This document shows, piece after piece, positions 35,886 to 63,401 of a stretch of 64,000 nt of DNA. The notes below the pieces were generated by a model, which was not told the origin of the DNA, searched no databases, and worked only from the letters and a program-made list of their open reading frames with translations. The stretch is from Mytilus trossulus (Eukaryota), in the NCBI RefSeq assembly GCF_036588685.1, contig NC_086374.1:54560001-54624000 (forward strand). The letters run 5' to 3'. Position 1 is the first letter of the stretch, and the number at the start of each line of letters is the position of its first letter. The position numbers and the translations under genes are program-made.

Positions 35886-36834
35886 TTATTCAGCTGATTG
35901 AACACCTTTTTTTCTCTCTTCTAAAATTCTTTTCAAACAGTATTCAGCTTGTCCCTGAGCATGTTTATTTTTGTTTTCTTTTGCTTTTTTCAGTGCTATC
36001 CCACAATTTGTCTCAGCTTCATTCAATTTCGAAGTCCTCAAATATATGGCTCCTAAATTTGAATAAAGTGCTGGAAGTTCTGGTACATTTGATGCTGTCC
36101 CAACTTCAACAGCTTGAAATAATGTTGACTCTGCTTCTTTTAGATTGTTTTGCATAATTTGTACAGTAGCAATGTCATTTAAAAGAACTATTCTCTGTGG
36201 ATGTTCTTCTCCTAAAACTCTCCTAGCTATACTTTCTGATCTAACAAGTAATGGTTGGGCTTCTGCCAATTCTTTATGATACATTAGGAATCGGCCATAA
36301 CTTTCTAGAGCAAGACCAAGCAAGGCATATGTATTGTTGTCAGACTCTGGATTTTCCTTGACCTTCACTTCCATAATTTTAACTGCTTCTCGATATCCCA
36401 TCTCTGCCATTTCATCTTTATTTGTCATTGCATAAAGACTTCCTAATTTAATGGTTATTTCAACAAAAGCATTACTGGTTTTTTCCATTCCCTTTTGAAG
36501 GCAAGCTTTCATTGTTTCTTTATATAAAACCTCAGCTTTTGAGAATTGTCGTTGATTTAAAGCTATATTAGCCAAATCGTCATATACTGTCACTTTTGCA
36601 TTAAAGTATTCTTCTCTCTCCATTTCTTTGCTTTTGAATTTATTCTCTATGTCGTATAGAGCCTCATGATAAATTCTTTCTGCAGCTTGATTTTCATTTC
36701 GCATGGCTGCCAGTTTTGCCCGTTTTATACTCATAACAATAGGGTCTTCTTCTGTTTTGCTTGAAAATCCAAGGAAACATCTTGATACACCAATTAATCC
36801 AAAAGAAGAAACAATTGTTGACAAGGAACTGGTT
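35886..36834 (-). CDS. TTC19: TTC19 homologue (mitochondrial TPR protein, complex III quality control), large terminal exon; 5' exon(s) unresolved (candidate 39280-39214)
   Basis: IKRAKL...AERIYHEAL, YDDLANIAL..QFSKAEVLYKETM, NAFVEITIKLGSLYA, LGEEHPQRIVLLNDIAT TPR repeats; ttacag acceptor immediately before 36834. Confidence 0.85.
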
Positions 36835-36934
36835 CTGTAAAAGAAACAATAATTTTAAAATGACATTTTTAAATGCTAACTCAAGGATCACATCTCCCGG
36901 TGGGGTTACTTCCTATATTTTTAGTCATGTTAGT

Positions 36935-40024: not shown

Positions 40025-42532
40025 CTGCTGGATAACTCGGACTAAAACAAAGTCGGACTATAACAAAATCGGACTATAACTAACTCGGACTATAACAAAC
40101 TCGGCCTACCATTATTCATATGCAGAAATATATTGAACCAACTCGGACTACGATTAGAAGATTGTTTTTTTTTACTGTAATAAAAAAAAATCTTATATAT
40201 TAAAATTATACATGTTATATACGAATTTATGGATTATAATGAATATTTTTGAATAAAAAAGATCGTATATAGAAATGATTAATATTTGTTATATGAGTTG
40301 AATTAGATATGTTTAGATGAGGGTAATTAACTTATACTTGAAGAAATGTTATTGTGATTTATGATGTTTATTGACAAAAGAAATGCTAATGGTTGGCGTG
40401 TGTTCTTGTTTTTATTGTGTTTAATCCTTGGTGTTTATGATTAGTAAATAAACAAAGACAAATTTGATTGACAGTGAATGGCTTCTTAACAATTTCACTA
40501 ATCTGTAATTGATTCAGCAATTGAAAAGTAATTATATTCAAATGGTCACATCAAACAGATACAATGTTTTTAGAAAGGCAAGCCGAGGCAAACATTTATT
40601 ATACATGTATCCAAAAATAGATTTGGAGTAAAATTGAAAAAACAACAGAGATTTCTTTGATCTTACCAAATACTTCTATAAAATAACATGAAAAAAAATC
40701 CATTATCATTTTCAACATGGGTATTGACTTCTTGATAAACTTCTAAAATATTGTTCAAAATGGAACATTGAAATGAACAAAGATAAAACTGAAATAATTG
40801 TATTCCGTAATGGATGGCAACAAGTCAATCACAGTTGGTATTATGACAAGCACGAGCTCAAAGTTGTGAACTCTTTTGTTTACTTAGGGAATTTATTTCA
40901 CTATAACGGAAAATTTCAGCAAACCCAAAAGAGACTATCCCAGCAAGCTAATAAAGCTCTTGCGTCACTCTTTATTTCATTTAAGATGCTGTACATATCA
41001 ACTCAACAGAAATGTGAAATGTTCGATAGTCTTGTTGGATCGATCTTAAGCTACGGTTCTGAGATATGGGCATTTCATCATGCCAAGGACATTGAACAGG
41101 TTCATAATAAATTTTGTAGATTTGTACTTAAAGTTGGTAAAAATTCACCTATTTGTGCTGTTATCGGTGAACTTGGACATTTGCCAATGTATATTATTAG
41201 AAAACAAAGAATACTTAAATATTGGTTGAAAATTGTTGCCAAGAAACCTCCTATTGTATTTGATGTATATAAAATGTTGGTTAATGATGCTGAGAATGGT
41301 AAAACAAACTGGGCGTCAAATGGTCGTACCTTGTTAAATGATCTTGGTTATAATTTTTTATGGTATAACCAAGAAAATGTATTTTTTTCATATGATGTTT
41401 TGAAACTACGCCTCTATGATCAGTTTATACAAAGCTGGCGTTCTAGTATGTTCAATTGTGAAAAATTGGATATTTTGAAAATGTTCAAAATTGACTTTTG
41501 TTTAGAAAAATATTTACTTCTTGATGTCAATGTTAAACTCTTAGCACAACTTAGATGTGGTTCACTTAAACTCAACATTGAAACTGGACGATATAATAAT
41601 GTGCCTCATAATGAAAGACTTTGTCAATGTTGCAATATGAAAGCTATTGAAAATGAATATCATTTTGTAATGATTTGTCCAGCCTATAGACATCTGCGTT
41701 TAAGATTTTTGCCTAAATATTATTGTTCTTGGCCTAATATGTCAAAATGTTTATCACTTATTCAAACAAGTTCAAGGACTTTGGTATTAAAACTTTGTTG
41801 TTTGTTAAATGAAAACTGGAAACTACGGTCACAACTGATAAAGTAGATTATATATGGTACTATCTGTTTAATGTGTGGTGGGTTTTTTTTGTTTTTTTTT
41901 GTGTTATTATTTTGCTTTCTGTTTTCATTTATATTATGTCGCTTACTATATTATATATGTTGTTGATGCTATAGCATTATATTATATGCTGATTTGCAAT
42001 AAACTTATTACAATTACTTTTAATTGGACATTTAGTTCCCAATTCCGTGTAATAACAGGTACTTGGGTGGTTAGATAGGTGTCAACAGTACATGTGCCAG
42101 TTGTTTGTTTAACCTATGGTGATTAAAAAGGTGTCAACTATACACGTGGCATGATGTCATAATCAATTAAGATATGCATATAATAACAATTTATTCTGAG
42201 AGGGACATTATTACAATTAATACTGCAAAGACAAATCAGTGGTAAATTTTCAATATAAATATCAAAAAGATTTTTTTTGGTGTTTTTATTTTTAAATATA
42301 TCTTGTTAACATATTTTTTTTATCCCCATCAAAAATGTTCAAAAATAAATTATTTAATAAATTAAAGATAAAAAATCATTTTGAATTAAGAATTGAAAAT
42401 TAATTTCCAATAACAACAACAACCAACATTATACTTAAATTCTTCTAGTAGTCCGAGTTTGTTATAGTCCGATTTCCGGAGGCCGAGTTTGTTATAGTCC
42501 GATTTTGTTATAGGCCGAGATATCATGGATTC
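40025..42532. mobile_element. Non-autonomous element with inverted arrays of 16-bp subterminal repeats, carrying a nested LINE fragment
   Basis: Five TCGGACTATAACAAAA-type units at 40037-40110 and the inverted array at 42449-42520. Confidence 0.65.
40730..42020 (+). mobile_element. 5'-truncated LINE (RT thumb and C-terminal zinc knuckle; ORF 40773-41846)
   Basis: FVYLG, LSYGSEIW, GELG, LNIETGRY..RLCQCC..ENEYHFVMICPAY; AATAAA at ~41998. Confidence 0.85.
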
Positions 42533-43306
42533 ATTTTATATAGGACTTTATTCATTTATTTTTTTGTAAAATACTATTTTTATACTTTATAGTTGTTTGG
42601 TATAATTTGAAGTTTGTCATTACTAAACGACTCAGCTTTGCTGCAAATAACTATTAGCTTAGCAGCAAAACAGTTCCTTCCTTTAGACATATAGTTTATG
42701 AAAATACAGTAGCCCAACACCAACACTGGCAACAGGTCAGTTGTTTAGTTGTATTTTCCACATTTTCATGCTACCCTTCCTATCAATTGCATTTTTGCAT
42801 ACCTGGAAAATTTTGATGTATTTTCATGATGTGGAACGCATTCACGTGGATGTAATTTTCTTCTCTTCAATTCATTCAGACATCGTAGTAATGTAAATCG
42901 AAATGCATTTATCACAGTTCTTCCCGATGTTGTCATTGTATAAGTTGTGTTGGTACCCGTACATAACAAAATCGAGGAAAGTATCGATAGGGAAAGGAAA
43001 AATTTTTAAAACAGTAAACCAGATCATAATTGCTAAAATAAAGATTTCCATTCCTAGTGTACAGAAATGAACATATAAAACAAGGTCTCCGACTTAAATT
43101 AAGATTTGTCTATTCAATAAATAATATCATTTACTTGAAATTTTGCATTTAAAATAAAATCATAGTATAATTTTAGTCCTAAATCAGTATTTTTTTGCAT
43201 TTCAGTGTGGGAACCAGTAGGACATAATTTTTCTACAACCACATGGAAGTTAGCAAAATTTATTTTTGATAGGCTGGCGCGAAAGAACTGAAAATAAACA
43301 CTCAAT

Positions 43307-46300
43307 ATGACTGACATTGCAAATAAAAGGCATGAAATTGCCAAGGAGATTAGGGCCTTATTGATGTCAAGTCCTGCAGCCCTGACAATTGATGAACTAA
43401 GGAGAGATTTTCATCAGTTCATGGACAAACCTATTCCCTTTAGGGAACTTGGGTACTCCAATCTTGAAGACCTGTTAAGAGACATGACAGATGTTTTACA
43501 GATTACTTATAGAAAGGGAATGATGTGTCTTGAAGTTATCCCAGATGACACAACCCGCCACATTGCAAAACTTGTGTCTAAACAAAAAATTCCAAACAAG
43601 AACAAATATGCCACAATGAGGAGAGGGCCACCTCCTAGAAGGCAGCAATATAAAGTGACGCCTTCTTTGCCTCGTTATATAAAAGATAACATATCAGAAC
43701 TATTTAGATCCTATTCCAATGGCTTACCGTTAACTCATTTAGATACTGCTTATTCAAAGCGCTTTGGTTCGATGTTTTCATTTAATAGACTTGGCTTTGT
43801 GTCTATTAAAGAGCTTTTATATTCTATTCCTGAATGTGTTTTACTCAAAGAATTTCAAGGTGGAGAGTGGAGAGTTTTACCTGTACATATGAAAGCACCT
43901 GAAGGCAATTGGAGAACAAGAGGACACAAACCAGAAAAAAGAACTTTAAGTCCACAAAACAGACCCCCAGATGGATGGTCTAGGCAGTATGACCAAAGAC
44001 AAGCTGCTGCCGTTGTAGAAACACCACAACAATACAACAGCACCTTGACAAATAGAGTTGAGTCAGGAAGACCTGATACCACTGCTCAACAAAAGCCAAT
44101 CAGAGGAAGAGGGAGAGGTAGTTTGAATTTGTATTAAAACTATAGAAAAAATGTTATATGATATATACAAAAAAGAAAATAATCCGTTAAAAAAAAATAA
44201 TTTGTGGGATATATCACAACCCAAATTGGTGCCATTGGTCTTTACCTTAAAATTCAGTTAGATTAAACCTTAAACTAATGTTACTTCTAAGGTGTTGCAG
44301 GGGTTCAAATTAGTAATGAAATGTCGTCCGAGACTTATTGTTTTTCTGAGATACTATATTTTCGTTTGTTACAAAAGTACTTAACCTTTCAGCCTTTAGT
44401 ACTTTGATGCTGTAAATTGTATACAGGACCTATGGTTGTTCTTAAGTTGGGACATTAAACTTGATAATTCACAAAGTCATGTACCTTTCATTCTTAAAAC
44501 ATTGTAAAAGCAAATTTGAACCCCTGCGTTTATGGTGTTATTTAACAGTTGTTGAATTGCAATTAGTTGTAACCATTTATAAATTAAAAATCATTTTACG
44601 ATGCAATGATGTGTATAGGTCATGTAGGTTTTAATTGAAAAGTCTCTATTTTCAATAATAAAGAAAAAAAAAAAACTTCTTAAACAAAGTTGTTTTTATG
44701 TTCACAATAACAATTTACATGATTAAGACACATGCTTTTTGTTGTTGAAAATTACACACTAAATCTGAACGCTTTTTAACAACCTTTAAATAAATGCACC
44801 AGGATGTTTAATACTTTCATTTGACATGAAACACAGCCTATTAACCCCAAAATACTCATTTCCACTATCACACTTAAGTTTACACTTTTATATGTTCAAA
44901 TGATGGAAGACTAGTTTGTATGTGAAGGAATTTGAAATAAAATAGAAGACACGGATATGAAAAGGGGGAAAAATCTTTGCTTTTGATTGTGTTGTTTGCC
45001 TTACATAAAGACATGTAAATGTATTAATGATTTTCTGTACACATGATTAATATAGTAAATAGATGTTATTTATCATGTTTATCTGGTACAATTATTACCA
45101 TGGTTACTGTTTATGATTACAGGAATGAAGAGAAGCGCCAGCGGTGGAGATCAAGCATCTGTAGGTAGAGAAAGTGAATCCAGTTATAATTCCAATGAAC
45201 CAGAAATAGATCCAGAATGTTGTCTTGAAACAGAACCTAATGATGGAACACAACTACTCCAGACAGAATTAAGAGATGTCAGTTGTATATATTTTTTAAA
45301 TTGATCATATTATCTGTATGACCATCTGACACAATGTCTGACATGTAGGACACATTTCCAATGGTCAGATAGGCCAGACAAAGTATCTTACAAAATGTTT
45401 GATAAACATTACTATGGAACGCCATGACTGTCTTCTGATGTTGATTGCTGAATATGTTAGGTGCTTTATCCATTATGTTCAGTAGTATGTATATTATGTT
45501 CAGTAGATATCCTATTATGTTCAGTAGTTATTACATTATGTTTAGTAGTTTTTACATTATATTCGGTGCTTTGGTTATTATGTTCAGTAGTTTCATTTTT
45601 ATATGCAGTGGTATTTGAATTATGTTCGGTACTTCTGACGTTATGTTCAGTACAGTTCTCATTATGTTCAGTACATTCGACATTATGTTCAGTAGATTCA
45701 ATATTATTTGCAGTACATTATGTAATACCTTCAGTAGTCCCGGTTTCTTTATATTCAGTAGATTATTCATTATGTTCAGTAAAAGCATCGATATTATATT
45801 CGGTTCGTTCAACTTTATGTTCAGTGGTTGTATACATTATGATGATGTAGTAAAAGTCGGGAAGTCAATAACGGAAATTGTCGGAAAAAAACGGACGCGG
45901 ATATTTTTGACGGACGTTTTTTTCCTGGACACCGATATGCAACAAAATGTCGTCTGCTAGATTAAGAGTGTCACTATATAAAGTAGATTTAGGTACTTTA
46001 TATCAAAAATTCCTAGATGAAAAGGTTGAAGATGATAGCTTTAACTTTCTAACGGATGAAGATCTTAAAAGGCTTGGGGTCGAGACAATAGGTGACCGCA
46101 TACGTCTGAGAGAAAGTATGCGGCATCTGGATGTGCCAGAGTCAAACTTACAGCCTGACCAAGGTACCTTTATCAATTGAAAAGACTCGTATAGCACATC
46201 ATTTTAAGGGAATTAGTGTTCTCAAACATTTATAAGTTATATATGGTTCGCTACTCACTCCCCAGTACGGACCCATAGAGGGTTAGTAAAATCCATAGGG

Positions 46301-49300
46301 GGTGAGGCCGAAGTCCGAATACCCTATGGGTTTTATTGCCCCTCTATGGTCCGTAGAGGGTCAGTAGATAACCGTATAAAGAATAAATCGTTCGCTGTAC
46401 TTCTGCTGCGTTTTGATGAAAAATAATCAATTAATTCATTATTTTCAAAACAAACAATTTAGGTTATGGCAAATACATATTTAGACAAAACAAAAATATT
46501 GAAAACTAGACAATATTATCATAGATATAATATAGGGTTATTGCATGAATATTATACAATTACTGTCTTTTGGTGAGGTAAATATGTGGTTTTATTGACT
46601 TTTGAAAAACTGATATTCACTGAGGCCAACATATTTACCGAAACAAAAGACAGTAAATGTTTTATTCCATATTCCGAGAGAAATTAATGTTATGGAAAAT
46701 ATTTACCAAAACCAATTGTACACCAAACGGTTTTTTTACCAAAATTATACACGTAAAAGCACGCGACGTTTTGCGCGGTGAATATCCTTTTTTATTCAAA
46801 ATCCCATTCATATAGAAAAACCTACTAATATTTTATCAATATGGAATAATGGGGAATATTGTCCAGGGTAGAATTTTATATTGCACGAGCATTTTTCTTT
46901 ACTTGGGTGCGATAGGTAGTGTTTCATTTTGTCATTTATATTAGATTTAAGAAATTTGTATAGATGTGTTTATCATTTTCGTTCAAGTTATTTATTTTGT
47001 CATCCATTAGAGTTTGAAAATAGTTAATATAACTTTTTTTTTAATTGGGGTTGAAACTTTTAACGTTTTAGTCTGTTTTAAAGTTTTAGTTTCCTCAATA
47101 AGTTGGATGTCAATGTTATATCTTGTGACACATTTTTTTGCAAAAGTATTCCAAAAGTATGTTCCCTTAGTATCTACATTTTAAGTTAATTAAAGGCTTC
47201 ATTTAAAAGCGAGTTTAGATTTTCATTATTTAATCTAGATAGGTACATCATAGTTTTTTTTTATGAAAGTTTCTAGTCTTAGTTCATTTCTAACAGCTAG
47301 GTTTGTTAGCTTCTTTTTGTCCCCAGTACTTGTTAAATAAAATGTGGCTAGTTTTTTGTTCTAAAATAGTTTTATCAATAAAATGAATAGCATCTGGTGT
47401 TCAGCTATTTTTGTTAGCTCGGAGTTTAGCTCTATAAAATTGTATATAAGTGTCCATATGTGTAACATATTTCACTATTATATATGTTAGAATAGGTTTG
47501 ACCGTTTCAAAAAGGTTGTAAGATACTCTCACAGCGGAAGTTGTCCAAAGCCTGATTAGTAAGAATAAATAGCAAATAAAACTTGAAACACAACACAATT
47601 TATAGATGAAGTCACCATAAACAGCAGATGTGACGTCATGAAGCCCCTATGAAATTTACTGAACCCAAAGTATCCATAAGGGGTCATCACGTGACGGCTA
47701 TTAACCATTTAAAACGTGATAATTTACCCGGGGGTACGATCAATCGGATTATTCAGACAGTCAACTGTGTGTTCACCCTCCCCCTTTTCTCCTTTGATAT
47801 AAAGCGTTCAAATGTATAACAAAATAATTACGCAAGAGACTTTTTAATTTTTTACCGGCCAGTTTAAAGGTGATGGATGGTTTGCGGCTCCTCATCTCTT
47901 ACCCATGAAAACTTAAAATCTTTTGTACCCCCCCCTCTAAATTTAAGCGAATTAAGACAAATTATCCCCTTCTACAGCAGCCTGAAAAAAATTAAAGGCG
48001 ACAATAATAATACATGTAAATCTTGTAAATAATAAAAATGTGTCTGTGTAACTAGCATGGTTTTGGTTTGTTCTTCAAAATACCACCAAAGGGCAGTGTC
48101 TTGCCTGAATAAGAGCTGCATGATAGTGAAGACGTGCCCTTACTCCAAGATCGATTATGAATAGTAAGAAATCATGAACCTCAAGAAATCTGACCATAAT
48201 TGACGGTCCTGACACGAAAAAATCAATTGGTATTTATCCGTTTCAGATCCGTTCATCATCCATTTTATCCGTTATACGTCCGGTAGAAGTCCATTTCACA
48301 TTCGTTCAACATCCGTTAAACCACAGGCAAATGCCGCCAAAGGGCAGTGTCTGGACTGAACATTTTGAGCATGCTCAAAACTTTGAACGGACGTTCAACG
48401 GATAAAATGTCCGTTGAACTCCGTTAAGCGTCGGTTTTGTACATGGTACTCGTCCGTTTCGTTTCCGTTTTGTATCCGTTACGTGTCCTTTATACATCCG
48501 TTGGAGGTCTGGAAGTTAAATTCACCAACGGACGTCTACCGGACGTTTAACGGATAAAACGGACGATGAACGGATCTGAAACGGATAAATGTCAATTGAA
48601 AATTTCGCGTTTATAGAAATGCCAATTATTGGTATTTCAGATTTTTTAAGGTTCATGAAAGGTCAGGATAAATGATCGTTTTCTTGTACCCAAGTAAATT
48701 TTTGGTCATAGTTACCTATTCTCAGAATCGAAATAAAGCTGTAAATGTAACAATAATATAATTACTTGTTGTAGAACACCAAGAAAGGAGTTTATCGACC
48801 ATAGTAAATGAAAGATCAATGCTTTTTAGAAGAGATGGAACTTCCTCAAGTAGAAACAGAAGTAGAAGCAAGCAAACAAAACAGAAAACATGGACAGGAA
48901 CGTTTGTGTGTCTCTCAAACAGAAAACAGTCAAAAATACCAAAAGGAACAGAAAAAACGATTCTTTTCCGATGCGGTTTAGGTTTAAAACGGATTACTGC
49001 CAATCTTAACTTCACTGCTGAACAGTTGTTTAATGCAATAGAAGATATATACCCAAAACTTAAAGGATCAGGAGGCTTTGAATTTCTTAGATGCGGTCAA
49101 AACTGTAGAGATCTTCAAGTCATAGACTGCAATTGGTGTCCAGTTGAACTAAGAAACAATATAGGGTCGCAGGCTAAAATATACTTGAGACCAGTTCAGA
49201 AAGACCTAGAAACTTCACCATTGCACGAAGAGGTAGAAACCATTCAAAAGGAGACATGTACGTTCTGCAAACAAAACGTAAACCTTCGTGAGTTACGAGA

Positions 49301-52300
49301 TCATATCAAGTCATGCAGGATGTACCGAAATTTTGAGTTGCCTGACATTGACCCTCCTTCACCTCAACCGCTGATTGATATAGAAGAGCCAGAAGACACC
49401 AATCTTTCGGTAGGTGTTTCACTTGATATTGGGGCAAGAAACGAGGAGTCGCAGATTGAAATAGATGAGCCAGAAGACGCTATTCCTCCGTTAGGAGTTT
49501 CTCTTGGTGTTGGGACAAGAAACGAGGAGCCGCATATTTCAACTGAGACAGGTACTAAAATAATCACTTCAATGGAAGTTATGAATAACATAATTACCAT
49601 TCTCATCAAAACAGTGTTAATGTCACAGGCACTTGTTTCAGTGATTTTTCGTACGTGTATGGATAGTAGATATTATAAAAAAGAAGATGTGGTATGATTG
49701 CCAATGAGACAACTGTCCACAAGAGACCAAAATGATAAAGGCATTAACAGCTATAGGTCACCGCACGACCTTCAACAATGAGCAAAGCCCATACCGCATA
49801 GTCATGTTTTTTTTTATTTTATATACAATAGAGATAGTCATTGACAGTAAAACCTCGGGTTTTTTTTTATCACTTTTCGTAAAACCTCGGTTGACCCCCA
49901 CTAAACAAGCCCCTTCGGCTAAGGTAGCTCCGGTGTCTTCCTCCATCTTGGATTTTGAAGAAGCAGATAACTTTGGTCTACATATTTAATGAAATGTGAA
50001 AATTTTGAGAGTTATATGTAATTTATATAAAAGATGTTTAATATCAATATAGAAATTTGTGTGTTTCATCATAATTACAGCTGTAATTTCTTAAAAACTC
50101 CTTCTTTGTGTGTTTGATTAGATTTTTATTTCAACTATGCCAAATAAGGAGAGATAACTCAGATAAAGTATTTTTTATAATAGAAAATTATGAATTTACC
50201 TATTTTGAAATGTAGCAAGAAAACAAGTTATGTGACCCATTTTTTCTTCTTTTTTTTTTTTATCTGAAAGTATGTTATAAGAGCAATCTTCTCACATGTT
50301 ATATTAAAGTTCTGAAAGGACGTTTTCTTTTTATAACACAAAATTTATTTTCCATGCATAATCGATACAAAATCTGACAACCTGTAGCGTGACAAAAAGG
50401 TCCGTGACCCATACTTTTTAATATATTTTTGGAAAAAGCATGATAAAAACTTCATTTTGACAAGTTATAAAATATTCTTTCAATTCTAATCAAGACGCCC
50501 TAGGCACCTTATAATATAATAGTGGAACACTTCGACTTTTATATTTTATGGATCGTTATTATTCAATTGATAGAATGTCTGATGACTGTGATTCATTGGA
50601 TTTATCAAAACATCTGAAAGTAAGAAATTGTTTATGGAAGAAAATTCTTGCAACGTTTTATGAAGATCATTAGCTTACGTCATACAAATTTACATGTCAA
50701 ACATCTTACCCCGTGGATTTTTTTTTACATACTTAATTCGCATAGAATTTTTTCAATAAGAAAAAAAAGTCATCAGGTTTAAAGTATTTATGCATTGCAG
50801 AAAAGAATATTTCATCTGATGAATATTCTTTTTATATTAAATACACATCTTATAAAGTTTTTTTCGTAGGCAAGACGTTTCAACTAAGGCACTACACATG
50901 CGTCAAAAGGCTTCATTAGGGAGGAAATATTTATCAGAAAAATAAATAAGCAGCCTAATCATGCGCCAGTGGAAACACTTAATGATTCTTGTGCATTTTT
51001 TTTTAATTTTCGTAGTTTTATTTGGTATTAAAAAAATAAATTTCATGACATATGATTCAGGCTTGTGGGTTGTTCCTCATGGTTCTCCGTCTCCCAACCC
51101 CTTAATGTCTCGAAGAGTGATTTAGATTCCCGCTTATGCTCAAAATTTGATTGTCATGTATTTTTTTAGATTATTCTATTTTCAGAATCATCAAGTTTCA
51201 ATACAGTTTCAACAGAGCAACCATTTGCACAAATAGTGGAAAAAATAATAAAGTTTTGCAAAACCAATGCTATTGTTGATCCTGTAGAAATACTAAGAAA
51301 ATATCAAGAGGAAATGGTCATAGGGAGAGCCCTCGAGATAGAGGATGTAACCCAGTGTGCTGAAGGGGACACAAATTTCATTCTGATAGACAGATTTAGC
51401 CTTCTCCAGACTTCTATTGATGAAATCGGATCAATCTCAGATTTGAGATTAACACTGGAGGTGCAGTTTTACAATGAAGTAAGCTTCACTTGATATTTCT
51501 CAGTAGGAAAATACTAAAGGGACAGTCAAGCTCATAAATCGAAAAAATATGACATCCCCATGGCTAAAAAAAAGCCAACAGACAAAAAATAGTACACCAG
51601 ACACAACATAGAAAACTAAAGACTAAGCAACACCAATCCCACCAAAAAATGGGTGTTATCTTATGTAGTTTATAAGATTTAATTCAATTTGATTTTGTGG
51701 TGTTTTAACGCCAGTTTTAAGCAATGCATTTGAGAGATTTCGTAGCGTCCAGTTTCTAATGGTAGAGGTCGAGGAAGCCGGAGTGCCCGGAAATAACCCA
51801 CCGTCCTACGATAGGAAAACTGACATTCCAAGTCAATTAAGATTGGAGTCGACTGTACCCGCACGAGCGAGGTTCGAACTCACAACCTCAGTGTTGACTG
51901 GCTAGTGATTACATAGTAACTACTTTTAAAATAGACCATTCGACCACCGAGGCCTCTTGTTTATAAGATATCTTATATGGAAACTTTATAAGATATCCTA
52001 AGTGATTTATGAGATATCTTATTAATATTTGGTTATAGGATATGTCATATAATTTTATTTATAAGATATCTTAAAAACTATATATATACAATATATCTGT
52101 AATTTGTGTTTTGCAGAAATAATATAAGCATTGTGTATATAAGTTTGATAAAAACTCAACTTAGAGAAGGTGAACCAATTTTTCTGATAAACATCCATTC
52201 ACCAGTCACGTTAAATAAACCTAATTTGGAAAATCGGAAACTCCATAGTTTCGCATCTATGTATTTTTACATTTAAGTAGAAATGTAGCCAATGTTCACA

Positions 52301-55300
52301 AAATGATTATACATGAGTACCTGCACGTCGAAGACATTAAGCATGGAGTTCCCGAAATTTTCAACAGTGCCAAGTGGTCCTGAAGACATTGAAAATGTGC
52401 ACCTCCTGTTCAGGGCAAATTTGAAAATATTCAATATGAATCTTTCATATAAAATTTTTTATGTTTTCAAAAAATAGGTGGCTTTAGATTATGGAGGCCC
52501 CAGAAAAGAATTCTTCAGACTACTGATGCTAGCAATAAAGGAGAAGTATTTCGACAATGGGCTCAGAGATTTATTGGCAGATCAATACCTATTTGTTGGG
52601 AAAATATTTGGTAAGCGTAATCCGTTAATCCGTTTGTAACAATTTCAAGTTGTGTACCAATACGAAAACAAACGTGACTGTCATAAACAATTTTCGGTTT
52701 TGTTTGATCCATACATGAACTTCATTAATTTTATAACTTTAACCACAAGAAGAGCAATTCTTAACAGGACCATGTCTTTATAAGATTTTAACTTTAGAAA
52801 TTAAAGTTGCATTTTTTTTACAAATAAAAGTTTTGCAATTTATGATAAGACTTTTTAAGTTTTAACCCGCCAAAGTGGATAATTTGAAGCAATTGCATTT
52901 TAGGTTATTTTTATAAAATCAGCAAAAATGATGAAAACACTGTACTAATTATGTTGATGTTGGTACATGATATTGTGTTTCATTATTTAATCTTTGTATT
53001 TTACTTTTACGTGACCATGTCCGTAGTAAGCGAAACAGGCGCAATCAAATAAAAACCAGACAGTGTACTTTGTTGTAAAGTTACAGCAGATTTCATTTAG
53101 TGTGTATCCAAAGATATTACTAATAGTCCAGTCAAACTAAGATTTAACCTCAAACTAATTGCAACAGAAAATGTTTTAGTTCTAATCTATAGCATTATGC
53201 CCTTTATATACACAGAAAAAAGTCCCATAAAATCTAACTTGAGGAAAACTCAAAATCAGCACTTTTAATTTCCTATGGAAATTAACATTGGAAGGGGAGA
53301 TAACTCTTACAAAAATGAGTCTTTTTTGGTCAGTTTTTGGTTGTTTTTCTTGAAATGTATGTACAGTATGATACTTTGATGGGGTTATAAGTTTGTATTT
53401 GACTGAAATATATAATCTTCTGCTCATGAAATGTACAAAACCAAAATGGAATGGGTAGTTTTATTTTTTTCATGCATTTTTCATTAAAGAATTTGCAAAT
53501 TTGAAGCTTTGTAACCATTTTGAAAAAATAATGTGAAAATTTGGTAATGTTTATATCTGTATATTATATTATTTCAGCAACTTTCTTATCTAAAGAAACT
53601 TTAAACCACAAAAAGGAGAATACATGCTTAATTATTTTTATTAAATTTGAGATTCTTTACCTTGACATGTTGAAAAATTCAATAAATGGTCAACTAATGA
53701 ATAACGAAATCTAGATTATAGCTTGATAAAATATATGAAAACACATTAAGAGTTGTTTATTATACTGTAAAGACCACTAAAAATCAAAAATCAATACATT
53801 CTGATGGATAGAAGAGGTAAAGTTATAATTTTGTATCAATTTTTATTGATATTTCTGCCTTTTTTGCAAGAGTTATCTCCCTTTACAATACAAATCTACA
53901 TAGGAATTTTAAATGGTGATTTTTTTAGTCTTCCTCAAGTTAGATTTTATGGGACTTTTTTCTGTGTATATTTGGGGTATAATGCTAAAGATTTAAACTT
54001 TTAAATCTTCTGTTGCAATTACTTTTAGGTTAGGGTCAAAATTATGCTAGATAGACTGGACTATAATATCGTTGGTTAGCTTGCTTGTTAGCTGAACCGT
54101 GAAGTCATTGTTCTGTCAGGTAAACAACCCTCCTTTAAGAGTAGACTAGTCCGGCAGATAACCAATCTACCTATCTGTTGGACTAGGCTACTTCGAAAGA
54201 ATGGTAGTATACCTGACCTGATAATGAGTTCACGGTTCAGCTAACAAGCAAGCTAACTAAAGATACTACCTTTGTCTACATACTCAATGAAATCTGCTGT
54301 AAATGTTTTTTTTTATCTTTTCCTTTTCAAGCATTAAGTTCACTTCAAAATGGAAAACTGCCAACTTTTCTTGAATCTGCTGTTGTGGATGAATTGTTCA
54401 ACAATACTGACAGTAACTCAATATGTATTACAAATCTACGACAAGGAATGGATGCTTTAGGATTTTATACTGTAAGTTGGAATTTTCACTTATACTAGTA
54501 GTTTTACTGTCATATTTCAGAAAATAAGTGCAAGTGTTTCGTGATTATGAAATAAATAAGATGTGTATTCTAAAATGTAAAAACGCGTAATTTATTAAAT
54601 GAAAACTAACTCATTTGTTCAGACATTCAGATGCATTTTGAAGATATGAAACATGTATCAGTTTGCTTTTACAACAACTTGTATTCACGGATGATTGATT
54701 CAGTTACATTACCGGTAATAAATTTAAATTTTTGGATCTTCATTATTTTCATCATTTAATCAAGTGAAAGTTTCTATCTGTCTTTTATTGTTTAAACAAA
54801 ATGTGTCGAAATGGCACGAATGACCCCGTCTCAAAAAGTTGAAAAATTTGCGATTTCAATAACACAGGTAGACACAAACATGATGGTAGTCTAACATATT
54901 AAAACTCAGCTTTATATCTGAAAGCGTTTGGGGGAAAAAAAAATCCGTATAACTGTGATTTCAACAAGTTATCAAAGTTCAAAGCCCGTAATGTCGGCAA
55001 CGATTAGCAATGCAGAACATAACTTAAACTTAATCTGTATCTCATCATTGTTAACTCACATGCGAAAAATCAGGGCAATATCTGAAAGCGTTTAGAAAAA
55101 ACTGATAAAAACATTATTTGCTTGCCTTTCAAGGGTAATTACTCTTACAAGGAGTTGTCCAACAAGTTTGACCCAAAGCACACTTTATCATAAGGATAAT
55201 ATATGCTATCGGAAGTTTCTTTCTATCTACATGTATCAGAGTTTTAAAAAAGGTCATAATTTTTCACCTTTCAAGGGCAATAACTCTATCAAGGAGTTGT

Positions 55301-58300
55301 CCATACTAACTTCTTATATCTAATGACTACCCTTTACTTTTGTTTATTGATAGATTTGCAAGGCATTACCGAGTCTAGTGTTTTTATTTCAAAACAACAC
55401 GCCTGCATTAACCATGAGAGGGATTCTACATGTGTTGAAAGCCCAGTTTAGTGAAGAAGGCAGTAATGCCTATTCTTTTGAAAAGCTGGTATATGGAGCC
55501 TTTGTGAGATATCTAAGAGAAGTTGGAAGTGAGTACAATGTAGACTAAACCAAGTACTTATATAATATATTTTGCATCTCTTGAACAGTTGTTCTCTCTC
55601 ACTTTTTTCTCTGCTATATTACAATACATGGTTAGAGATTTTGTGTAAAGCTCGATAATTTTGAATTGTAATTTATGGTACACGTAGTTCTAGTATAATA
55701 TATCGATCCTTATTTTTATCTCCCTGTGATTTCAAGTCAGTGTCAGATGTATTATAACCCAGTGGTGGAAGTGACATTGTAATATTTTCCATACCGTACT
55801 GTATAGATCTCAGAGAGCATTTACACCAAACAATATATCTTAAATGTCCAGGTTAAGTTTTCAGTAAGATATTATACAATACGTGTATATTATATTTGAA
55901 ATAGGCTTGTTTCTTGGTGTTTGTTTGTGTTTTTAAATTATAATTGTCTAATTGTCTCATTTAAGGTGGACGAAGAAGTGCTGTACTCCTGGAAAGTGTT
56001 CTACAGTTTGTCACTGGAGCGACCGAGGAGCCTGTTTTGGGTTTTAAAATCCATCCTTCTATTACCTTCTATGAAGTGGAGACAACATTTTTACCAACAG
56101 CGAACACGTGTATTAGTAGTTTGGGACTTCCTAGGCCATCTTACAATACTGGATTACCAGAGGATGCAGAATTGTTCGAAACCTATGACTACGCTTTTAC
56201 AAGCACATTTTATGGCTTGAAGTAGGCAAAACACTTACTTGTTCTTCTGGTATTGAAACAGTTTTAATTTTATATCATTATTCAACCTGGAAGAAATAAG
56301 ATTTACAAGTATTGATTATAATTGGTCTTTTGCTTAATTTTATGTTTCTAAATACAGAGTAGTATGCTTATAATTATTGTAATTTTGACATAGTCCTTTC
56401 CAACCAGATTAAAAGAGGTCTTAAAACACAGCTCTGGCAATCCACCATTTTATTTTGTGCTCTTAAGACCTTTAAATGGATCATCGATGAGTCATTTAAT
56501 TTGATACAGCAAATATAATAGTTTACAATTCATAATTACGACTTTATGATTGCAAACGCCTTCAGATATACATCAATACCATGATCGTGTGACCTCCAGT
56601 TTAATGGACAGTTCTGGCGTAATGTTTGAAGTTTATCGTTGGGTACAGAAACTGAAGAAGACAACAATTTTACCCCTTGTGTACCCTGGCCATTTTCTTG
56701 TTCATCGGGGTTATCGTCAGTTACTAATTCATTACTGTCAGGTAGGGGCGGTGATTCATCAACAGTGTTGTTCATCACACTTGTGGTAAACATCTGCATA
56801 GGTGTTTTACGGACAGTTCTGATACGATGGTTCGCCCAAGCAGTTTTCCAAATTCCAAGTTTTTCATTTACTTTGTGCAAATACACATGGTGCAGTGCAT
56901 ACATATTAAGTTCATCTAAAGGATCTAATACTCCGATGTCTTCCATATAATAAAATAAATCATAATAGTATGACAAAACTCCAGCATAAACATCTCGCCA
57001 GAGACGCTCTATGCGCTGGTTATGAACACTTTTTCCAGTTATCATGCTACCTCTTCCTGAACCTCTGTTTTTTATCATGTAATCTGCAATTAAAGTGTTC
57101 TCTCTACCCATATCTGAACGGACTCTGGATGGAAGTCCATATGTACTAACGCCTCTCACAAAGCAATTTAATAAAGTCTCTGCTTTGTTATTATCAACAC
57201 ACTCAAGAAAAGTAATCAAACGACTGAATCCATCGATACCACCAGCTATTATCATATTCCATCGTATAAGCTTGTGGTTCGTGTCTACATGCCACAAAGT
57301 ATTTGGAGATTGCACACTGTAGGTTCTCCTATGTAACCGTCCCTTTTTTCTTTCTAGAATACCTTTTCTGTCTACACGGTACATGCTGTCTCTGAGTCTG
57401 TATCTTTGAATCTAGAATTGATTATTAAAATAATCTTATAAGTTATACCTCAAGTTATTCGCGGATGTGTTCTAGTAAATTAATGATATAAAATGTTTTG
57501 TTGTCTATATACATATAAATAAAAAATCATTAATGTATATATGTACACGAATGTGGAAGAAAATCTCAAGAACGTTAGCCAAAAAAGGATCGATAACTCT
57601 GCATGGATGATAAAACATTTTTAAGCGGGAAAATACGAATGCCTTCTCAAATTCATGCTATTAGAAAAGAAATCAAAATATTACAGAAGAGTATGATCCA
57701 CCATGTTCTTACACTTCACTATAATTAATATAGTAGAATAAAATGATATACAAATGCATGAAAATGATATATACAAGTATTAACATGATTAATGTAATAT
57801 AGAACAGATCTATCATGCTATGGAGGGGTATTTGTGAAAAATTCCAGTCGAGGGACTGTGAAATTTCCCAAGCCGCTAGGTATCTGTTTATTTACACCGA
57901 ATGAGTTTTTATTGAAACTGTTTGTATATAATAGAGAAATCGTAGTCCCGCGGGAATTACTACATGAACTTACATACGCGTTAGTGCTTTTTGTAACCTC
58001 AAGGTATCTAAGTGTGAAAGTCATTGTTATTCCATCTTTAAATCGTACATTTGTATAGACGTCTTTTTCCCCACTTTATATCTGAGATTTTCTTTTTAAA
58101 GGTTTTCGGTTTAACTCAATCAATAGGGCTTAACCACGTTGTCTATAAAATGTTATTTGCCGCAAATTCAACAGCAGTGGTGAAAAACGTTAAAATTCTT
58201 TTGAAATGAGGAAAAAATATAAGAATATGCAAAAATACACAGGCTATCAACCAATCAAAATTTAGCATTCTTATATAAGGTGCAATTAATAACAATCAAC

Positions 58301-61300
58301 CAGTATACTGATTTGTATCACTTCATATTAATAATCATTGTGGTGAGGTTAAATTTCCTGTCATTAATTCATCATCCATGCACGAACTTGTCCCATAAAT
58401 AATCATATCTGTACATTTACCTCACTTTCGGGTTTATAGATGTGATTTTTTTTTCTGAAACAAGTGCTTTTCGGACCATCCTCAAGAACTTGCGGTTATC
58501 CGATGTTCAGTACTTCAGTAATTTGATTATAGTTCGTTATTACGTTCTTACTTGTGTTGAACTTTTACATCACTGTCTCATGTGTTGGGGAGGGATGAGA
58601 TTCCCGCGCTAACATGTCTAACCGTGTCGTATATTCTAAATATATGATAATGTGTCAGTCTCAAATCAGGAGCCTGCAATTCATTGGTTGTCGTTTTTTG
58701 ATGTGTTACATATTTGTTTTTCATTTAATTTTTTTATTACTAATAAGGCCTTAGTTCATTCGTTTTAATTGTTTTATAGATGAATTGCAGTATGGGTTGT
58801 GCTCATTGTTGAAGGCCGTAAGGTGACCTATAGTTGTTAATTTCTGTGTCATTTTGGTCACTCAGTGTGGAGAGTTGTCTCATTGCATTCATACCAAATC
58901 TTTGTTTTTACATTGACCATTTGGTATATGGCCGTGCTTTAAGCGACACGTACATATAGGTCATACTGGTACCGTTAATTTTATTACTACCACTGGGTCG
59001 ATGCATCTGCTGGTGGACTTTTAGTCCCCAAGGGTATCACCAGCCTAGTGGCCAGTACTTCGGTACTGCCATGAAAATACGGATTTTTTGTGTTATTAAA
59101 ATTTGCTGTTACAAATATTAGAAATTATTATAAATTAAGGAATGTATCTCCCTCATGCAAAGCTCTGATTCCTTTCACGGATTTGGCTATACTTTTTGGA
59201 CCTTTTGGATTATAGCTCTTCATCTTTTATATAAGCTCTGGATTTTAAATATTATGGCCACGAGCATCACTGAAGAGACATGTATTGTCGAAATGCGCAT
59301 CTGGTGCAAGAACATTGGTACCGTTAATTTTATTAACTATTTTAAAGAAATCAAATCGTTAACTGATAATGGGTGCCATAGGTGGTTCACCGGAATTTTC
59401 TTAGAGATAGGAAACTAAGGGTGTTACTTAAACAGAAAAGGGGAGTGTCAAATATTTCATGTATATTTTGAACAAAGAGAGGAATACCTCGGCAGCCTTT
59501 GCCAAATCAAAACAATGTACCTTCGGACTTTGTGTTTCGAATTGTAGTTACCTTTTCATACTTAGTATTTATTCTAATTCAAGCTCCATGTGATGCAAGA
59601 AAATACTGAGTATCTTGGAGCAAGGCTATTTTCTTCTTTTCGGGGGGAGGGGGACTCCTAGCAAATAACATGTTTATTATGGCATTGTAGAGATTTTCTG
59701 ATTAAATAAATAAAGTTGCCGATCCGGTACATGAATAGATCGGTTAAAAAGCATTTTTTTAAAATTGCAATTAAATTGGAAAAGCTTAATACGAGGGTTG
59801 GAAATTGAGAGCACAAAAAGGGGGTTGGGGGTTTGTTCCACAGGGAAATTTTTATCTTATGAATTCTACCTTTGAAAGGTTAATATACTATTAGGTAATT
59901 AAAAGAGAAAAAAAAAAAAAAAAATGTGAAAAAAAGATTAATGGTTTTTCTTCCATGCCTAGAATTTGCTTCCATTGAAATTTTGCAAACATCCCAGAAC
60001 AAATCACATGAATGATTAATATTGACCATTTGGTATAAAAAAAAAAATATTCAAATATGATGTAACGTGTTCCGAAATCTATGCATTTTTTGAAACAACC
60101 TGATCCGAACTTTCCGTATCTTAATTATGTTGTAGTATGACCCACACACAGGCGGCAAACAGAGGTCTACCCGGGGGTTGATTTCACTATCAAAATACGA
60201 CGGGAAGGGGCACTTTAAATTTAACCCCCTACCTGAAATTATTCAGGTCATGTGAAATTGTAGATCACAACTTATCCAAAGAAACGAAAATTCTGATCTG
60301 AAATTGTCAAAAAAGGATCAGGGGCGGATCCAGCCATTTTATAAAGGGGGTCCTAACCAAGGTCAAAAAAGGAGAGGGTGTTCCAACTATACATGTCCCC
60401 ATTCAAATGCATTGATAGTCCAACAATCACATTTAAGTCAATCAGTTTTTGATTAATGAAGCAATCTTGCTTCTCTCAGAATATATTTTAAGCATACTAT
60501 GGCTAGTAATATTTGTATACACCAGATCTTTATTTGATTTGAATATATTAATAATGTCAACAATTTCGGCTAAATCAATGTTGATCGGATCAGATACCGT
60601 GATTTTCAGATCTATTGTAAATGTCTGTAATTATCATATCCACATCGTAAAGCCGGGAAATGGATCAGAAACATACTAGTGTTTAAAAATATTCAATTTA
60701 GGACTGGGGTTTTGGAATGTATGGTACAAACCTTAATGTTTTGTTGGGCTAATATCTGCTTTAATAGACTCACTCCACAGCAAGGAAATTCCACTACCTG
60801 TTTTGCAACAACAGCATCTAAATCCTCGTCAGAAATGTTAGAAAATTCAAGTTTGCTCAAATTATACATTTTCATATTTCTATAAATTGTACTCTCTGAT
60901 ACACTAAACATCTCACTAATTTCTATAACAGTTAAATCAATTTCAAGCAGGGACTCCAGTGCTTCTTTGGGAATAAAAAACTTGTTATTACTCTTAGTCA
61001 AAATATTGCTGCTAAAATGAACACACGCAATTCTTAATTCCATTATTTTTCTCCTGTCGTTCATACCTAAATATGCGAAATCTTGAAGCGACAACTTGCA
61101 AATTAAGTCAGGTGTTATTTTTTCCTGGTGAAAAATTCCAACTTGGGAACGTAAACCACACCGATTCAAAACTGCTTCCATTTCTTCCATTTTCATTCAA
61201 TCACTTAAAGGTGTTCATGAATAAAACGTCCGTCAAAAGTATCCGCGTTCGGTTTTTTCCGACAATTTCCGTTATTGACTTCCCGACTTTTACTACATCA

Positions 61301-63401
61301 TCATAATGTATACAACCACTGAACATAAAGTTGACCGAACCGAATATGATATCGATGCTTTTACTGAACATAATGAATAATCTACTGAATATAAAGAAAC
61401 CGGGACTACTGAAGATATTACATAATGTACTGCAAATAATATTGAATCTACTGAACATAATGTCGAATGTACTGAACATAATGAGAACTGTACTGAACAT
61501 AACGTCAGAAGTACCGAACATAATTCAAATACCACTGCATATAATAATGAAACTACTGAACATAATAACCAAAGCACCGAATATAATGTAAAAACTACTT
61601 AACATAATGTAATAACTACTGAACATAATAGGATATCTACTGAACATAATATACATACTACTGAACATAATGGATAAAGCACCTAACATATTAAGCAATC
61701 AACATCAGAAGACAGTCATGGCGTTCCATACATTACCTCAAAACTGCCAATTATTTGGTCAGACAGATTGTAGGCTTTCAATTGGCCTCAGTTTGGTTAA
61801 TGTTTCTCTTTTTAGCTTACCTTGCCCATACCAAAATTATGTAAATATTTAGGTTGAAATTACAAATTGATATGAAATAAATGATAAATAAAAGGATATA
61901 TTCAGTTCAGATAATAAAATAATCAACTATAAGTTATCTGTTATATTACCATGCTAAATATTATTGTGTTTATATACATGTATGTCTAGTTATGAAAATT
62001 TTACTGAACTTTGTATGCTTTCAGTTGCTTGCTGAAAAAACAGAGGGGATATGGGCTAGTCAGTTACCATTCTTATACAAGGTTTGTATAATGCAGTGTT
62101 TCCAACACAGCCTTACACTTTTTTGAGTCCTCTTCATTTTTAGGGTGGTTATTTGGGAAAGATAGCCTAAACATTTATCATTTGTTTATACATGTTATAG
62201 GAAATGATCAAATAAGATTGAAAAAAATAAAAAAATAATTAAAAACTTAAACCCAGAACCATAGAGCTTGATGATTGTCTAAGTTGATAAGTTGATGTGG
62301 TGATAACTTCAAGATGGATGTCAAATTTGATAAAACTCCTTGCAAAAGAAAATACTGTGGATTCTTGATTTTCATCATGTTCATGGATTGAGGAAAAATT
62401 GTATTTTCATGTTTCTAAAGTCAACATTCAGCCCTGTAAATTAAAAATAAAATTGAACATTTTAAATGCATCAATCAACTTACCCATGAAGTCCATGAAC
62501 ATGATGAACAAATGGTAGTCTACATATAATAAGGAATCTAAAGTATCACAATTTATTAGGAGGAATTACACATTTATTGCTGTTCTTCGTCTTAACAGTT
62601 GTTTGAAGGTCTTCAGTAATGAACAAACCAGCTTGCATCTAACAACTGTACCAATGTAAAGATAGCATCTGGCATCTACCTAAATAGTATTTTGATGCCC
62701 CACCTACAATAGTAGAGGGGCATTATGTTTTCTGGTATGTGCCTCTGTTTGTCTGTTTGTTCGTTCCGCTTCAGGTTAAAGTTTTTGGTCGAGGTAGTTT
62801 TTGATGAAGTTGAAGTCCAATCAATTTGAAACTTAGTACACATGTTCCCTATGATATGATCTTTCTAATTTTAATGTCAAATTAAAAATTGACCCCAATT
62901 TCATGGTCCACTGAACAAAGGAAAAGATAGTGTGAAGCTCAGGTTAAAGTTTTTGGTCAAGGTAGTTTTTGATGAAGTTGAAGTCCAATCAACTTGAAAC
63001 TTAGTACACATGTTAACTATGATATGATCTTTCTAATTTTAATGCCAAATTAAAGTATTGACCCCAATTTCATGGTCCAGTGAACATGTAAAATGATAGT
63101 GTGAGTGGGGCATCCATGTACTATGGACACATTCTTGTTTGTTATCTATCACTTGATGTTATACGTTACTTTGGTTTATCGACATTTGTCTTGTAATTGG
63201 TATATGTGTATCAATATTAATTTTAATATTTTTCATTTCAGATGAAATACAGTAAACTCCTCAATTTTAAAGACCTAGGGTACATGAGTGTTATAGAGTT
63301 ATGTAATTCTTTTCCTGACCAGATTTTGATAGAAAGACCTGTATCCAAGGGAGATTGGTTATTGTATGATGCTAGAGTTCCTAGAAAATCACCTAAAAAG
63401 G
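43307..63401 (+). CDS. TDRD5: TDRD5-like (Tejas-type) LOTUS-domain piRNA-pathway gene, 5' exons 43307-44117, 45123-45277, 62025-62081, 63242-63401; continues beyond the window
   Basis: Extended LOTUS1 KEIRALLMS...PFRELGY...DMTDV...[16 protein letters not shown]; LOTUS2 YSKRFG..F.FNRLGF; LOTUS3 assembled across exons 2-4 (LQTELRD|[19 protein letters not shown]|[20 protein letters not shown]); phases consistent. The Tudor domain is not in the window, so TDRD7 is not fully excluded. Confidence 0.75.
44298..44526. mobile_element. Small MITE
   Basis: CAGGGGTTCAAATT...AATTTGAACCCCTG TIRs. Confidence 0.6.
45413..45933 (+). repeat. Left TIR (521 bp) containing 17 units of ~21 bp (45473-45835)
   Basis: Reverse complement of 61210-61730 with about a dozen substitutions and no indels seen; core TTATGTTCAGTA. 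Confidence 0.95.
45947..56225 (+). CDS. Transposon-encoded SAM / UBZ zinc finger / HECT E3-ligase-like protein, 664 aa; exons 45947-46163, 48775-49551, 51186-51478, 52478-52610, 54332-54471, 55354-55528, 55966-56225
   Basis: SAM ([20 protein letters not shown]); CX2CX11HX3C at 49257-49316; HECT motifs LEVQFYNE|[26 protein letters not shown] (catalytic Cys), C-terminal FYGLK; all six introns GT-AG and in phase, no stops. Confidence 0.88.
48212..48610. mobile_element. MITE in intron 1 of the HECT gene
   Basis: ~80-bp TIRs (caattggtatttatccgtttcagatccgttcatc / gatgaacggatctgaaacggataaatgtcaattg). Confidence 0.75.
51679..51958 (-). mobile_element. tRNA-derived SINE
   Basis: Minus strand GGCCTCGGTGGTCGAATGG (A box) and GTGAGTTCGAACC (B box); 11-bp TSD GTTTATAAGAT (51668-51678, 51959-51969). 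Confidence 0.8.
53084..54299. mobile_element. Tc1/mariner-type hairpin MITE (TA TSD) interrupted by a Harbinger-type MITE
   Basis: TA-CAGCAGATTTCATT...AATGAAATCTGCTG-TA; the arms rejoin once 53124-54066 is removed. Confidence 0.75.
53124..54063. mobile_element. PIF/Harbinger-type MITE with ~190-bp imperfect TIRs
   Basis: TAGTCCAGTC...GACTGGACTA; TAA TSD (53121-53123, 54064-54066). Confidence 0.75.
56536..61196 (-). CDS. IS3EU-type DDE transposase with N-terminal SAM and HTH domains, 446 aa; exons 61196-60732 and 57411-56536
   Basis: SAM-like [34 protein letters not shown]; [22 protein letters not shown]; catalytic WHVD...[32 protein letters not shown]; phase-0 GT-AG intron; no lesions. Confidence 0.92.
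58967..59335 (+). mobile_element. Non-LTR retrozyme: one 349-nt monomer plus a 20-nt terminal direct repeat
   Basis: TGGTACCGTTAATTTTATTA at 58967-58986 and 59316-59335; contains a hammerhead ribozyme. Confidence 0.75.
59264..59307 (+). ncRNA. Intact type I minimal hammerhead ribozyme; predicted cleavage after C59301
   Basis: Stem I GCAUCA/UGGUGC, core CUGAAGA, stem II GACA/UGUC, GAA, palindromic stem III AUGCGCAU, AUC cleavage triplet. Confidence 0.85.
61210..61730 (-). repeat. Right TIR (521 bp) with the mirrored ~21-bp array (61308-61670)
   Basis: TACTGAACATAA cores; reverse complement of the left TIR. Confidence 0.95.
62692..63140. repeat. HINE/Helentron-type element with two ~168-bp tandem satellite units
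   Basis: tcaggttaaagtttttggtc...gatagtgtga at 62771 and 62939; short subterminal IR (atgcccc / ggggcat). Confidence 0.6.

Follow-up and report, generated by a model that had tools for sequence, protein, structure and literature searches.

Subterminal repeat arrays in a Mytilus IS3EU element and its relatives: candidate binding sites for the transposase

The element and its two genes

The window (the whole stretch of 64,000 nucleotides analysed in this work) contains an intact IS3EU element of 16,318 bp, i.e., about 16.3 kb, that runs from TATGG to CCATA, carries CATTAC duplicated on both flanks and embeds two convergent genes (Table 1).

Table 1. Coordinates of the element, of its terminal features and of its genes in the window
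Feature	Position	Strand	Remarks
Target-site duplication, left copy, CATTAC	45407..45412	+	same 6-mer on both flanks
Left TIR, 521 bp, starts TATGG	45413..45933	+	98% complementary to 61210-61730, 12 mismatches
Terminal box TATGGAACGCC	45413..45423	+	identical 11-mer in L018, L032, L040, L043, L053, L063
Left subterminal array, 17 cores	45473..45835 (last core ends 45826)	+	Tandem Repeats Finder period 21, 63% matches
Second gene, 7 predicted exons, ~664 aa, open frame	45947..56225	+	convergent to transposase
Second gene, exon 1 (SAM-like)	45947-46163
Second gene, exon 2 (C2HC zinc finger)	48775-49551
Second gene, exons 3 to 6	51186-51478, 52478-52610, 54332-54471, 55354-55528
Second gene, exon 7 (HECT C-lobe)	55966-56225
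Transposase exon 2: end of HTH2 and integrase-type DDE core (D196, D253, E288)	56536..57411	-	PF24764 rva_4, E 2e-77
Transposase exon 1: SAM-like domain, HTH1, start of HTH2	60732..61196	-	HTH_23, E 0.001; GT-AG splice
Right TIR, 521 bp	61210..61730	-	pairs with 45413-45933
Right subterminal array, same 17 cores and steps	61308..61670 (last core ends 61317)	-	mirror in TIR
Target-site duplication, right copy, CATTAC	61731..61736	+	6-mer match with left flank

According to the excerpts of PMC10045372, PMC12730594 and PMC8232023 from which the class criteria were taken, IS3EU/GingerRoot elements have TA..TA ends (typically TAYGG..CCRTA), a 6-bp target duplication, two encoded proteins, an integrase-like DDE transposase with its first D located 100-300 residues from the N-terminus and without HHCC, and multiple copies. 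In the window element we found TATGG..CCATA, CATTAC, a transposase of this type (first D at D196, without HHCC) together with a convergent HECT gene, and other flanks before 45413 on 8 contigs of run X1 and 12 contigs of run X12. In its termini, duplication length, transposase type and two-gene plan, the element agrees with the published criteria for IS3EU/GingerRoot, the tree constructed here comprising the fetched loci.

Copies of the element were judged from contigs of four public runs representing three organisms. The flank depth is 0 or near 0 in three of the four runs, and in the four runs the depth, which is a poor measure of copy number, drops about tenfold at 45933, the inner end of the TIR; on this basis, TIR-bearing copies seem to outnumber gene-bearing ones. 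One 480-base contig of run X8 (record 26, on window 45412-45578) consists of two truncated TIRs placed back to back (~166 and ~128 bases), that is, a mini-derivative of ~300 bp with few cores per end; a comparable mini-element of 200 bp lies at 9322-9520 of L059. The length of 16 kb is partly due to inverted-repeat inserts located within introns of the second gene (53145-54032, 54064-54268 and 48212-48610, with arms of 111, 97 and 84 nt), and no target duplication is evident at the printed arm ends of these three inserts. Elsewhere in the window there are a broken LINE-like element with endonuclease and reverse-transcriptase matches (26035-30009, plus strand), a host-like TPR frame (35886-36854, minus strand) and host-like frames at 40728-44137 (plus strand), with an OST-HTH/LOTUS domain at 43298-44137 (E 1e-23) and an unassigned frame of 372 codons ahead of it; the transposon may have inserted in an intron of this LOTUS gene.

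The two exons of the transposase gene, joined by a GT-AG splice at the same junction as in P0002, encode 444 aa with no stop. ATG codons are present at 61196 and 61190, the first of them 13 bp past the inner end of the TIR. The protein gives an rve match (E 1.5e-4), the residues D196, D253 and E288 are invariant in 55 homologues, and the named protein closest to it, from Mytilus edulis, is 94% identical over exon 2 and has the same splice. The initial annotation had assigned a SAM-like domain and HTH domains to the transposase, an assignment borne out both by the profile matches and by a structural model (pLDDT 84), in which a loose linker connects an N-terminal domain of five helices to two helical bundles and a core of the RNase H type. 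The best fold match of this model is IS21 IstA (E 2e-6). The N-terminal domain matches the profile of the SAM domain of tankyrase-1, a polymer-forming one, with E 5e-4 and over profile positions 5-47 only. No zinc-finger match was found in the N-terminus of the transposase (SAM-HTH-HTH), nor any signature of P-element (THAP) or Mutator transposases, the matches being of the rve and HTH types only.

The second gene also has its first ATG 13 bp past the inner TIR end. GT-AG splicing leaves one open frame in 4 near-identical solutions, and the first splice is a predicted one, since the homologue P0121 covers exons 2-7 and starts after the SAM exon. The product matches SAM_2 (E 0.0019, below the cut-off), zf_C2HC_14 (E 3e-4) and HECT (E 8e-9) in Pfam, and its SAM-like exon matches SAM structures (E 4e-4); both proteins of the element begin with a SAM-like domain. 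The last exon keeps the Cys of the HECT catalytic motif. Exon 2 harbors an 81-bp in-frame duplication encoding an acidic stretch of 27 residues (49368-49538).

The array and its conservation

Counting sites with up to 3 mismatches from TTATGTTCAGTA, the left TIR contains 17 cores starting at 45473, 45494 ... 45815, 8 of which are exact and 12 within 1 mismatch, separated by fourteen core-to-core steps of 21 bp and two of 24 bp. In 300 shuffles of the TIR, sites within 1 mismatch numbered 0.01 on average (maximum 1) and sites within 3 mismatches 0.86 (maximum 5), so that the mismatch count and the shuffles confirm the 17 copies and the steps first reported for this array. No site within 1 mismatch was found on either strand of the other 62,958 bases of the window. 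The mirror array of the other end is also present (61670-61317, minus strand), even though it does not represent independent evidence, since it belongs to a pair of TIRs that are 98% identical. The array fills 70% of the 521-bp TIR length, and one step of 21 bp outside the first core, at 45452, there is a possible 18th core, decayed (4 mismatches). A higher-order period of 63 bp proposed by Tandem Repeats Finder was rejected, the identity of units at lag 3 (0.63) not being above that at other lags. Tandem repeats of 21 bp also occur elsewhere in the window.

Two properties originally attributed to the array need revision. The spacers had been regarded as free and non-repeating; however, the first 12 are 44% identical pairwise versus 30 +/- 2% after shuffling (0 of 5000 shuffles as high), the cores being 85% identical, and the core is followed by G or C in 16 of 17 units and preceded by A in 13. 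Since the spacers share identity, what repeats is a 21-bp unit of degenerate sequence, 12-13 bp of which are conserved. As for the location of the cores on one helical face, at 10.5 bp per turn this holds for the outer 13, but not for the inner four, as the two 24-bp steps turn the next two cores by 103 degrees and the last two by 206 degrees. A strict one-face rule is not a general trait either, since relatives also have periods of 8, 12, 13, 14, 19, 23, 24/25 and 28.

To see how widespread these arrays are, relatives were collected with a 55-protein alignment as the query, blind to arrays, and the best 80 of 518 metagenome loci plus 16 genome-bin loci were retained; there were no relatives among viral contigs. 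Arms of the TATGG..CCATA type surround the transposase in 12 of the 65 loci longer than 3 kb. These complete relatives represent 10 families; nine of the 12 elements have an exact 6-bp duplication, two (L033 and L059) do not, and L041 itself stops at the end of its contig. Ten of the 12 carry a homologue of the second gene on the strand opposite to the transposase and convergent with it. All 12 right ends and 11 of the 12 left ends reached a periodicity z of at least 10, versus 43 of 400 random control windows (11%). The refuting observation originally named, a lack of arrays in related elements, is thus contradicted, and arrays are a general trait of these animal-type elements. They are not required by the whole superfamily, since no array is evident by eye in the first 400 bases of two fungal IS3EU consensus ends from PMC12730594, and since the TIRs of REP9 measure 43 bp according to the consulted part of PMC8232023.

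The TATGG terminus is present in all 20 other relative termini printed, and CAAAA near positions 19-24 is a second terminal motif common to SAM-less families, the window element and L006 having ACTGTC instead. Cores are family-specific even on contigs of one assembly prefix (L018, L043, L048, L049 and L063), and L057 and L037 have near-perfect young arrays. In L075 (1395-1650) the steps of the array alternate between 10 and 11 bp, with a mean of one helical turn, which is the cleanest helical signature of the set. Nested inserts were observed in L065 (3566-9151, with an 1862-codon frame) and L040 (13906-15683, with overlapping frames). Eukaryote-type IS3EU elements also occur on contigs filed under bacterial and archaeal genome bins (L081-L096), including a complete one with a 6-bp duplication and a HECT-type gene (L083, 9217-16523); these contigs are probably host DNA binned with symbionts.

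The conservation of the core is best appreciated among the 13 loci that encode a full SAM domain and were found by protein alone. TTAT-type cores in 21-bp steps lie upstream of the transposase in eight of them (L003, L005, L006, L007, L009, L010, L015 and, weakly, L002), the consensus of L009 and L015 being identical to unit 5 of the window array and those of L003 and L006 close to it. Among the others, L001 has a 25-bp version, L008 a 19-bp version and L004 an unrelated 13-bp array; L011 has no array in its 794 upstream bases and L012 is a locus without upstream DNA. The transposases of these SAM relatives are 42-52% identical to that of the window, and four-fold degenerate sites are saturated with respect to it (0.17-0.43 observed, 0.27-0.39 expected by chance). 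In relatives with 45-50% protein identity, both core and step have been kept across this saturated synonymous divergence, which argues for selection on both of them. Moreover, of the array variants among copies from the four runs, 3 fall within 204 bases of core and 11 within 150 bases of spacer (Fisher p 0.01), a count based on 40 of 99 listed rows and including some differences private to the window copy; of the three in the core, two return the site to the consensus, and the remaining one matches a variant that is frequent in the array. These counts lend modest support to a purifying selection that would act on the cores. The idea that selection, rather than mere slippage, maintains the array is therefore upheld, in that core and 21-bp step survive saturation and variants fall mostly in spacers. 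In several loci of the SAM clade (L001-L003, L005, L008, L009 and L015) the start codon of the transposase lies in an ATGGCG context, which resembles the YY1/short-leader initiator and suggests that transcription starts downstream of the array.

The recurrent step and the possible binder of the array

The step of the arrays was compared in a curated set of 35 families, derived from the 96 loci by dropping near-duplicates, loci with little upstream DNA and loci without an array by eye; since arrayless loci were dropped, how many families have arrays can be read from the 12 complete elements only, not from this set. Units of 20-22 bp occur in 20 of the 35 families and, among background tandem repeats taken from these loci and from the window, in 8 of 84, arrays having been delimited and labelled by eye and kin not being independent. 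The other 15 families have units of 8, 12, 13, 14, 15, 19, 23, 25, 30, 33 or 36 bp, and in L059 (the 200-bp mini-element) and L048 (a nested insert) it is doubtful that array and transposase belong together. Of the 10 families collected blind to arrays, only three have 20-22-bp units, and 2 more have higher-order units of 41-42 bp. The 20-22-bp label is scattered over the tree (10 changes versus a shuffled mean of 11.6) and goes with many unrelated cores, so that the step recurs while the core turns over. The two-turn step is favoured, not required, and the space that an HTH pair occupies on the DNA may account for it as much as a common helical face does.

We consider it rather probable, on the comparative analysis carried out here, that the 17 cores are repeated binding sites for the tandem HTH domains of the element's own transposase. 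One transposase would be seated on each 21-bp unit through HTH1 and HTH2, the step of about two turns would give neighbours room and a common face, and the high number of sites would lend specificity to a short motif in a large genome. The sites would load protomers, or raise their local concentration, beside the separate terminal box, where cutting would occur. Array occupancy would probably damp the transcription of both genes, since these begin 13 bp past the TIR, which makes the TIR their upstream region. The SAM domain would be an add-on of one clade, dispensable for the array. Three observations favour the transposase as the binder: families located on contigs of one assembly prefix have different cores; the transposase shares its domain plan with IstA, MuA and TnsB, in which direct repeats are recognised by tandem HTHs; and the Galileo transposase binds repeats in long TIRs, as stated in the consulted part of PMC3688188.

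One check proposed at the outset was whether the core changes with the HTH sequence. Array similarity does track transposase relatedness (rho 0.17-0.23, p 0.001-0.004); however, the recognition helix tracks the core no more than other parts of the protein, ranking 12th of 54 sliding windows for its correlation with array sequence, and the catalytic core correlates equally. A recognition-helix code, attractive by eye, did not stand out in this sliding-window test. Moreover, counter-examples exist in both directions, since L030, L048 and L063 have near-identical recognition helices and unrelated cores, and L047 combines a recognition helix like that of the window element with a different core. 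For these reasons, the identity of the binder is something that we infer.

According to a different hypothesis, a host transcription factor might use the array as a promoter or enhancer, both genes sharing the TIR as their upstream region. The location of the array, ~120-480 bp upstream of start codons that both lie 13 bp past the inner end of a TIR, fits this idea, and a conserved host factor would also account for the conservation of the core in the SAM clade. Nevertheless, family-specific cores on one assembly prefix would demand several factors with similar spacing, and the cores are conserved in TIR-bearing copies, which, with depth as a poor copy measure, seem to far outnumber gene-bearing ones. 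We therefore regard a host factor as a rather unlikely sole reader of the array, even though reading as a promoter and reading as transposase sites are not mutually exclusive.

The initial annotation had favored polymerisation of the transposase, head-to-tail via its SAM domain, with the geometry of the polymer fixing the 21-bp step and the polymer either pairing the two ends or soaking up excess enzyme. This model draws on the SAM-like five-helix domain that heads the transposase, with tankyrase-1 SAM as the best structural match, and on the 21-bp step being held quite faithfully in the SAM clade (7 of 10 rows). The SAM domain marks one branch of the transposase tree (support 100/99; 10 of 35 rows, the clade of L001-L012 and L015). 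However, periods of 20-22 bp, found in those 7 of 10 SAM rows, are also found in 13 of 25 SAM-less families (Fisher p 0.46; one independent contrast), and since SAM-less families share these periods, SAM polymerisation does not appear to be what generates the array or its step. In addition, three SAM families use 13, 19 and 25 bp, the inner four cores of the window array are off the common face after the two 24-bp steps, and the match to tankyrase-1 is confined to the profile positions given above. Nor does the number of sites visibly scale with the length of the element, no relation being evident among 8 elements (e.g., 22-23 sites in the 5.9 kb of L041 and 5 in the 7.5 kb of L049). A polymer of this kind as the origin of the array is, in our opinion, unlikely and is not supported by these data.

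A more elaborate scenario, which we regard as quite unlikely and put forward as a speculation, would retain the polymer in the lineage of the window element. SAM would have been added to both proteins of one animal IS3EU clade; the HTH pair would coat the 21-bp array, SAM would polymerise, and the SAM-bearing HECT ligase would dock on the polymer and ubiquitinate and clear either the polymer or the nearby chromatin. If this were true, the element would possess a self-timed transpososome with a built-in E3 ligase.

It might also be argued that the array is a neutral minisatellite, expanded by slippage inside the TIR and copied between the ends by gene conversion. The homology retained by the spacers, the near-perfect young arrays of L057 and L037, the widely varying periods and the other 21-bp tandem repeats of the window would be in agreement with such an origin. 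Slippage probably multiplies the units, yet it leaves unexplained what is kept: the same 12-mer and step persist where synonymous sites are saturated, variants avoid the cores, and arrays occur at 12 of 12 complete relatives versus 11% of control windows. A wholly neutral origin appears improbable to us. Lastly, an array encoding a heptad-repeat peptide or a structured RNA, which steps that are multiples of 3 (21 and 24) and a 129-codon frame open at 45461-45850 in the left arm might suggest, is hardly credible and was rejected as a family trait, since an ATG appears only among the last codons of the frame, which a stop interrupts in the right arm, relatives step by 13, 14, 19, 20, 22, 23, 25 and 37, and there is neither a folding signal (RNA folding z +1.2) nor an Rfam match.

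Comparison with known systems and significance

Binding of a transposase to many sites near the ends of an element is not new. The CACTA (En/Spm) and hAT (Ac) elements have many short transposase sites near their ends, usually in mixed orientation and with no fixed step, and the TIRs of MuDR are promoters for two convergent genes; all of these belong to superfamilies different from that of the window element.

With respect to the IS3EU/GingerRoot elements described in the consulted parts of PMC10045372, PMC12730594, PMC6839031 and PMC8232023, the window element shares the TAYGG..CCRTA ends, the 6-bp duplication, the integrase-like DDE transposase and the two opposed genes, and differs in its TIRs, which measure 521 bp versus 100-150 bp in GingerRoot and the much shorter ones of REP9. 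A likeness in domain plan, judging from the available part of PMC10122671, exists with IS21 (IstA), Mu (MuA) and Tn7/CAST (TnsB), whose transposases also have tandem HTHs before the DDE core and read direct repeats about two turns apart; in IS21, HTH-1 and HTH-2 of IstA read direct repeats spaced by 23 bp. However, these systems are prokaryotic, have two or few repeats at their ends rather than 17, rely on ATPase partners and contain no SAM or HECT. Galileo/Foldback elements resemble the window element in their long, internally repetitive TIRs, a likeness of structural type and not of lineage, as Galileo belongs to the P-element superfamily, with a THAP domain and a transposase unrelated to that of the window; in the consulted part of PMC3688188, the extra sites bound by this transposase are proposed to give specificity in large genomes. 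The closest precedent for the SAM-filament model is IS1535 (IS607 family), where, according to the excerpt of PMC6188088, cooperative loading on subterminal repeats gives rise to a nucleoprotein filament that captures the other end; unlike the window element, IS1535 has a serine recombinase, no TIRs, no target duplication and asymmetric ends.

Concerning novelty, the consulted part of the GingerRoot account (PMC6839031) makes no mention of tandem repeats, subterminal arrays, a SAM domain, HECT or ubiquitin, and that of PMC10045372 makes no mention of HECT. In the sources consulted, PMC8268682 and PMC10294476 included, no publication describing subterminal arrays, SAM domains or HECT genes for IS3EU elements was found, and Repbase reports and the Kojima 2019 review may hold some; no paper on SAM-bearing DNA transposases was among the literature matches listed. 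The IS3EU superfamily and the principle of multiple end sites in other transposons are already known, and the surprise is limited because that principle is a familiar one; the family-wide array, the conserved core, the favoured step and the SAM clade appear to be undescribed.

The emerging picture is that of a two-tier end design, with a terminal box common to families and a family-specific subterminal array, often with a step of 20-22 bp. This design predicts a transposase binding site in the little-studied IS3EU group. It also offers a means of assigning non-autonomous copies to the element that mobilises them, and the periods of the different families (12 to 33 bp) provide a natural series for the study of spacing rules in an integrase-like eukaryotic transposase.
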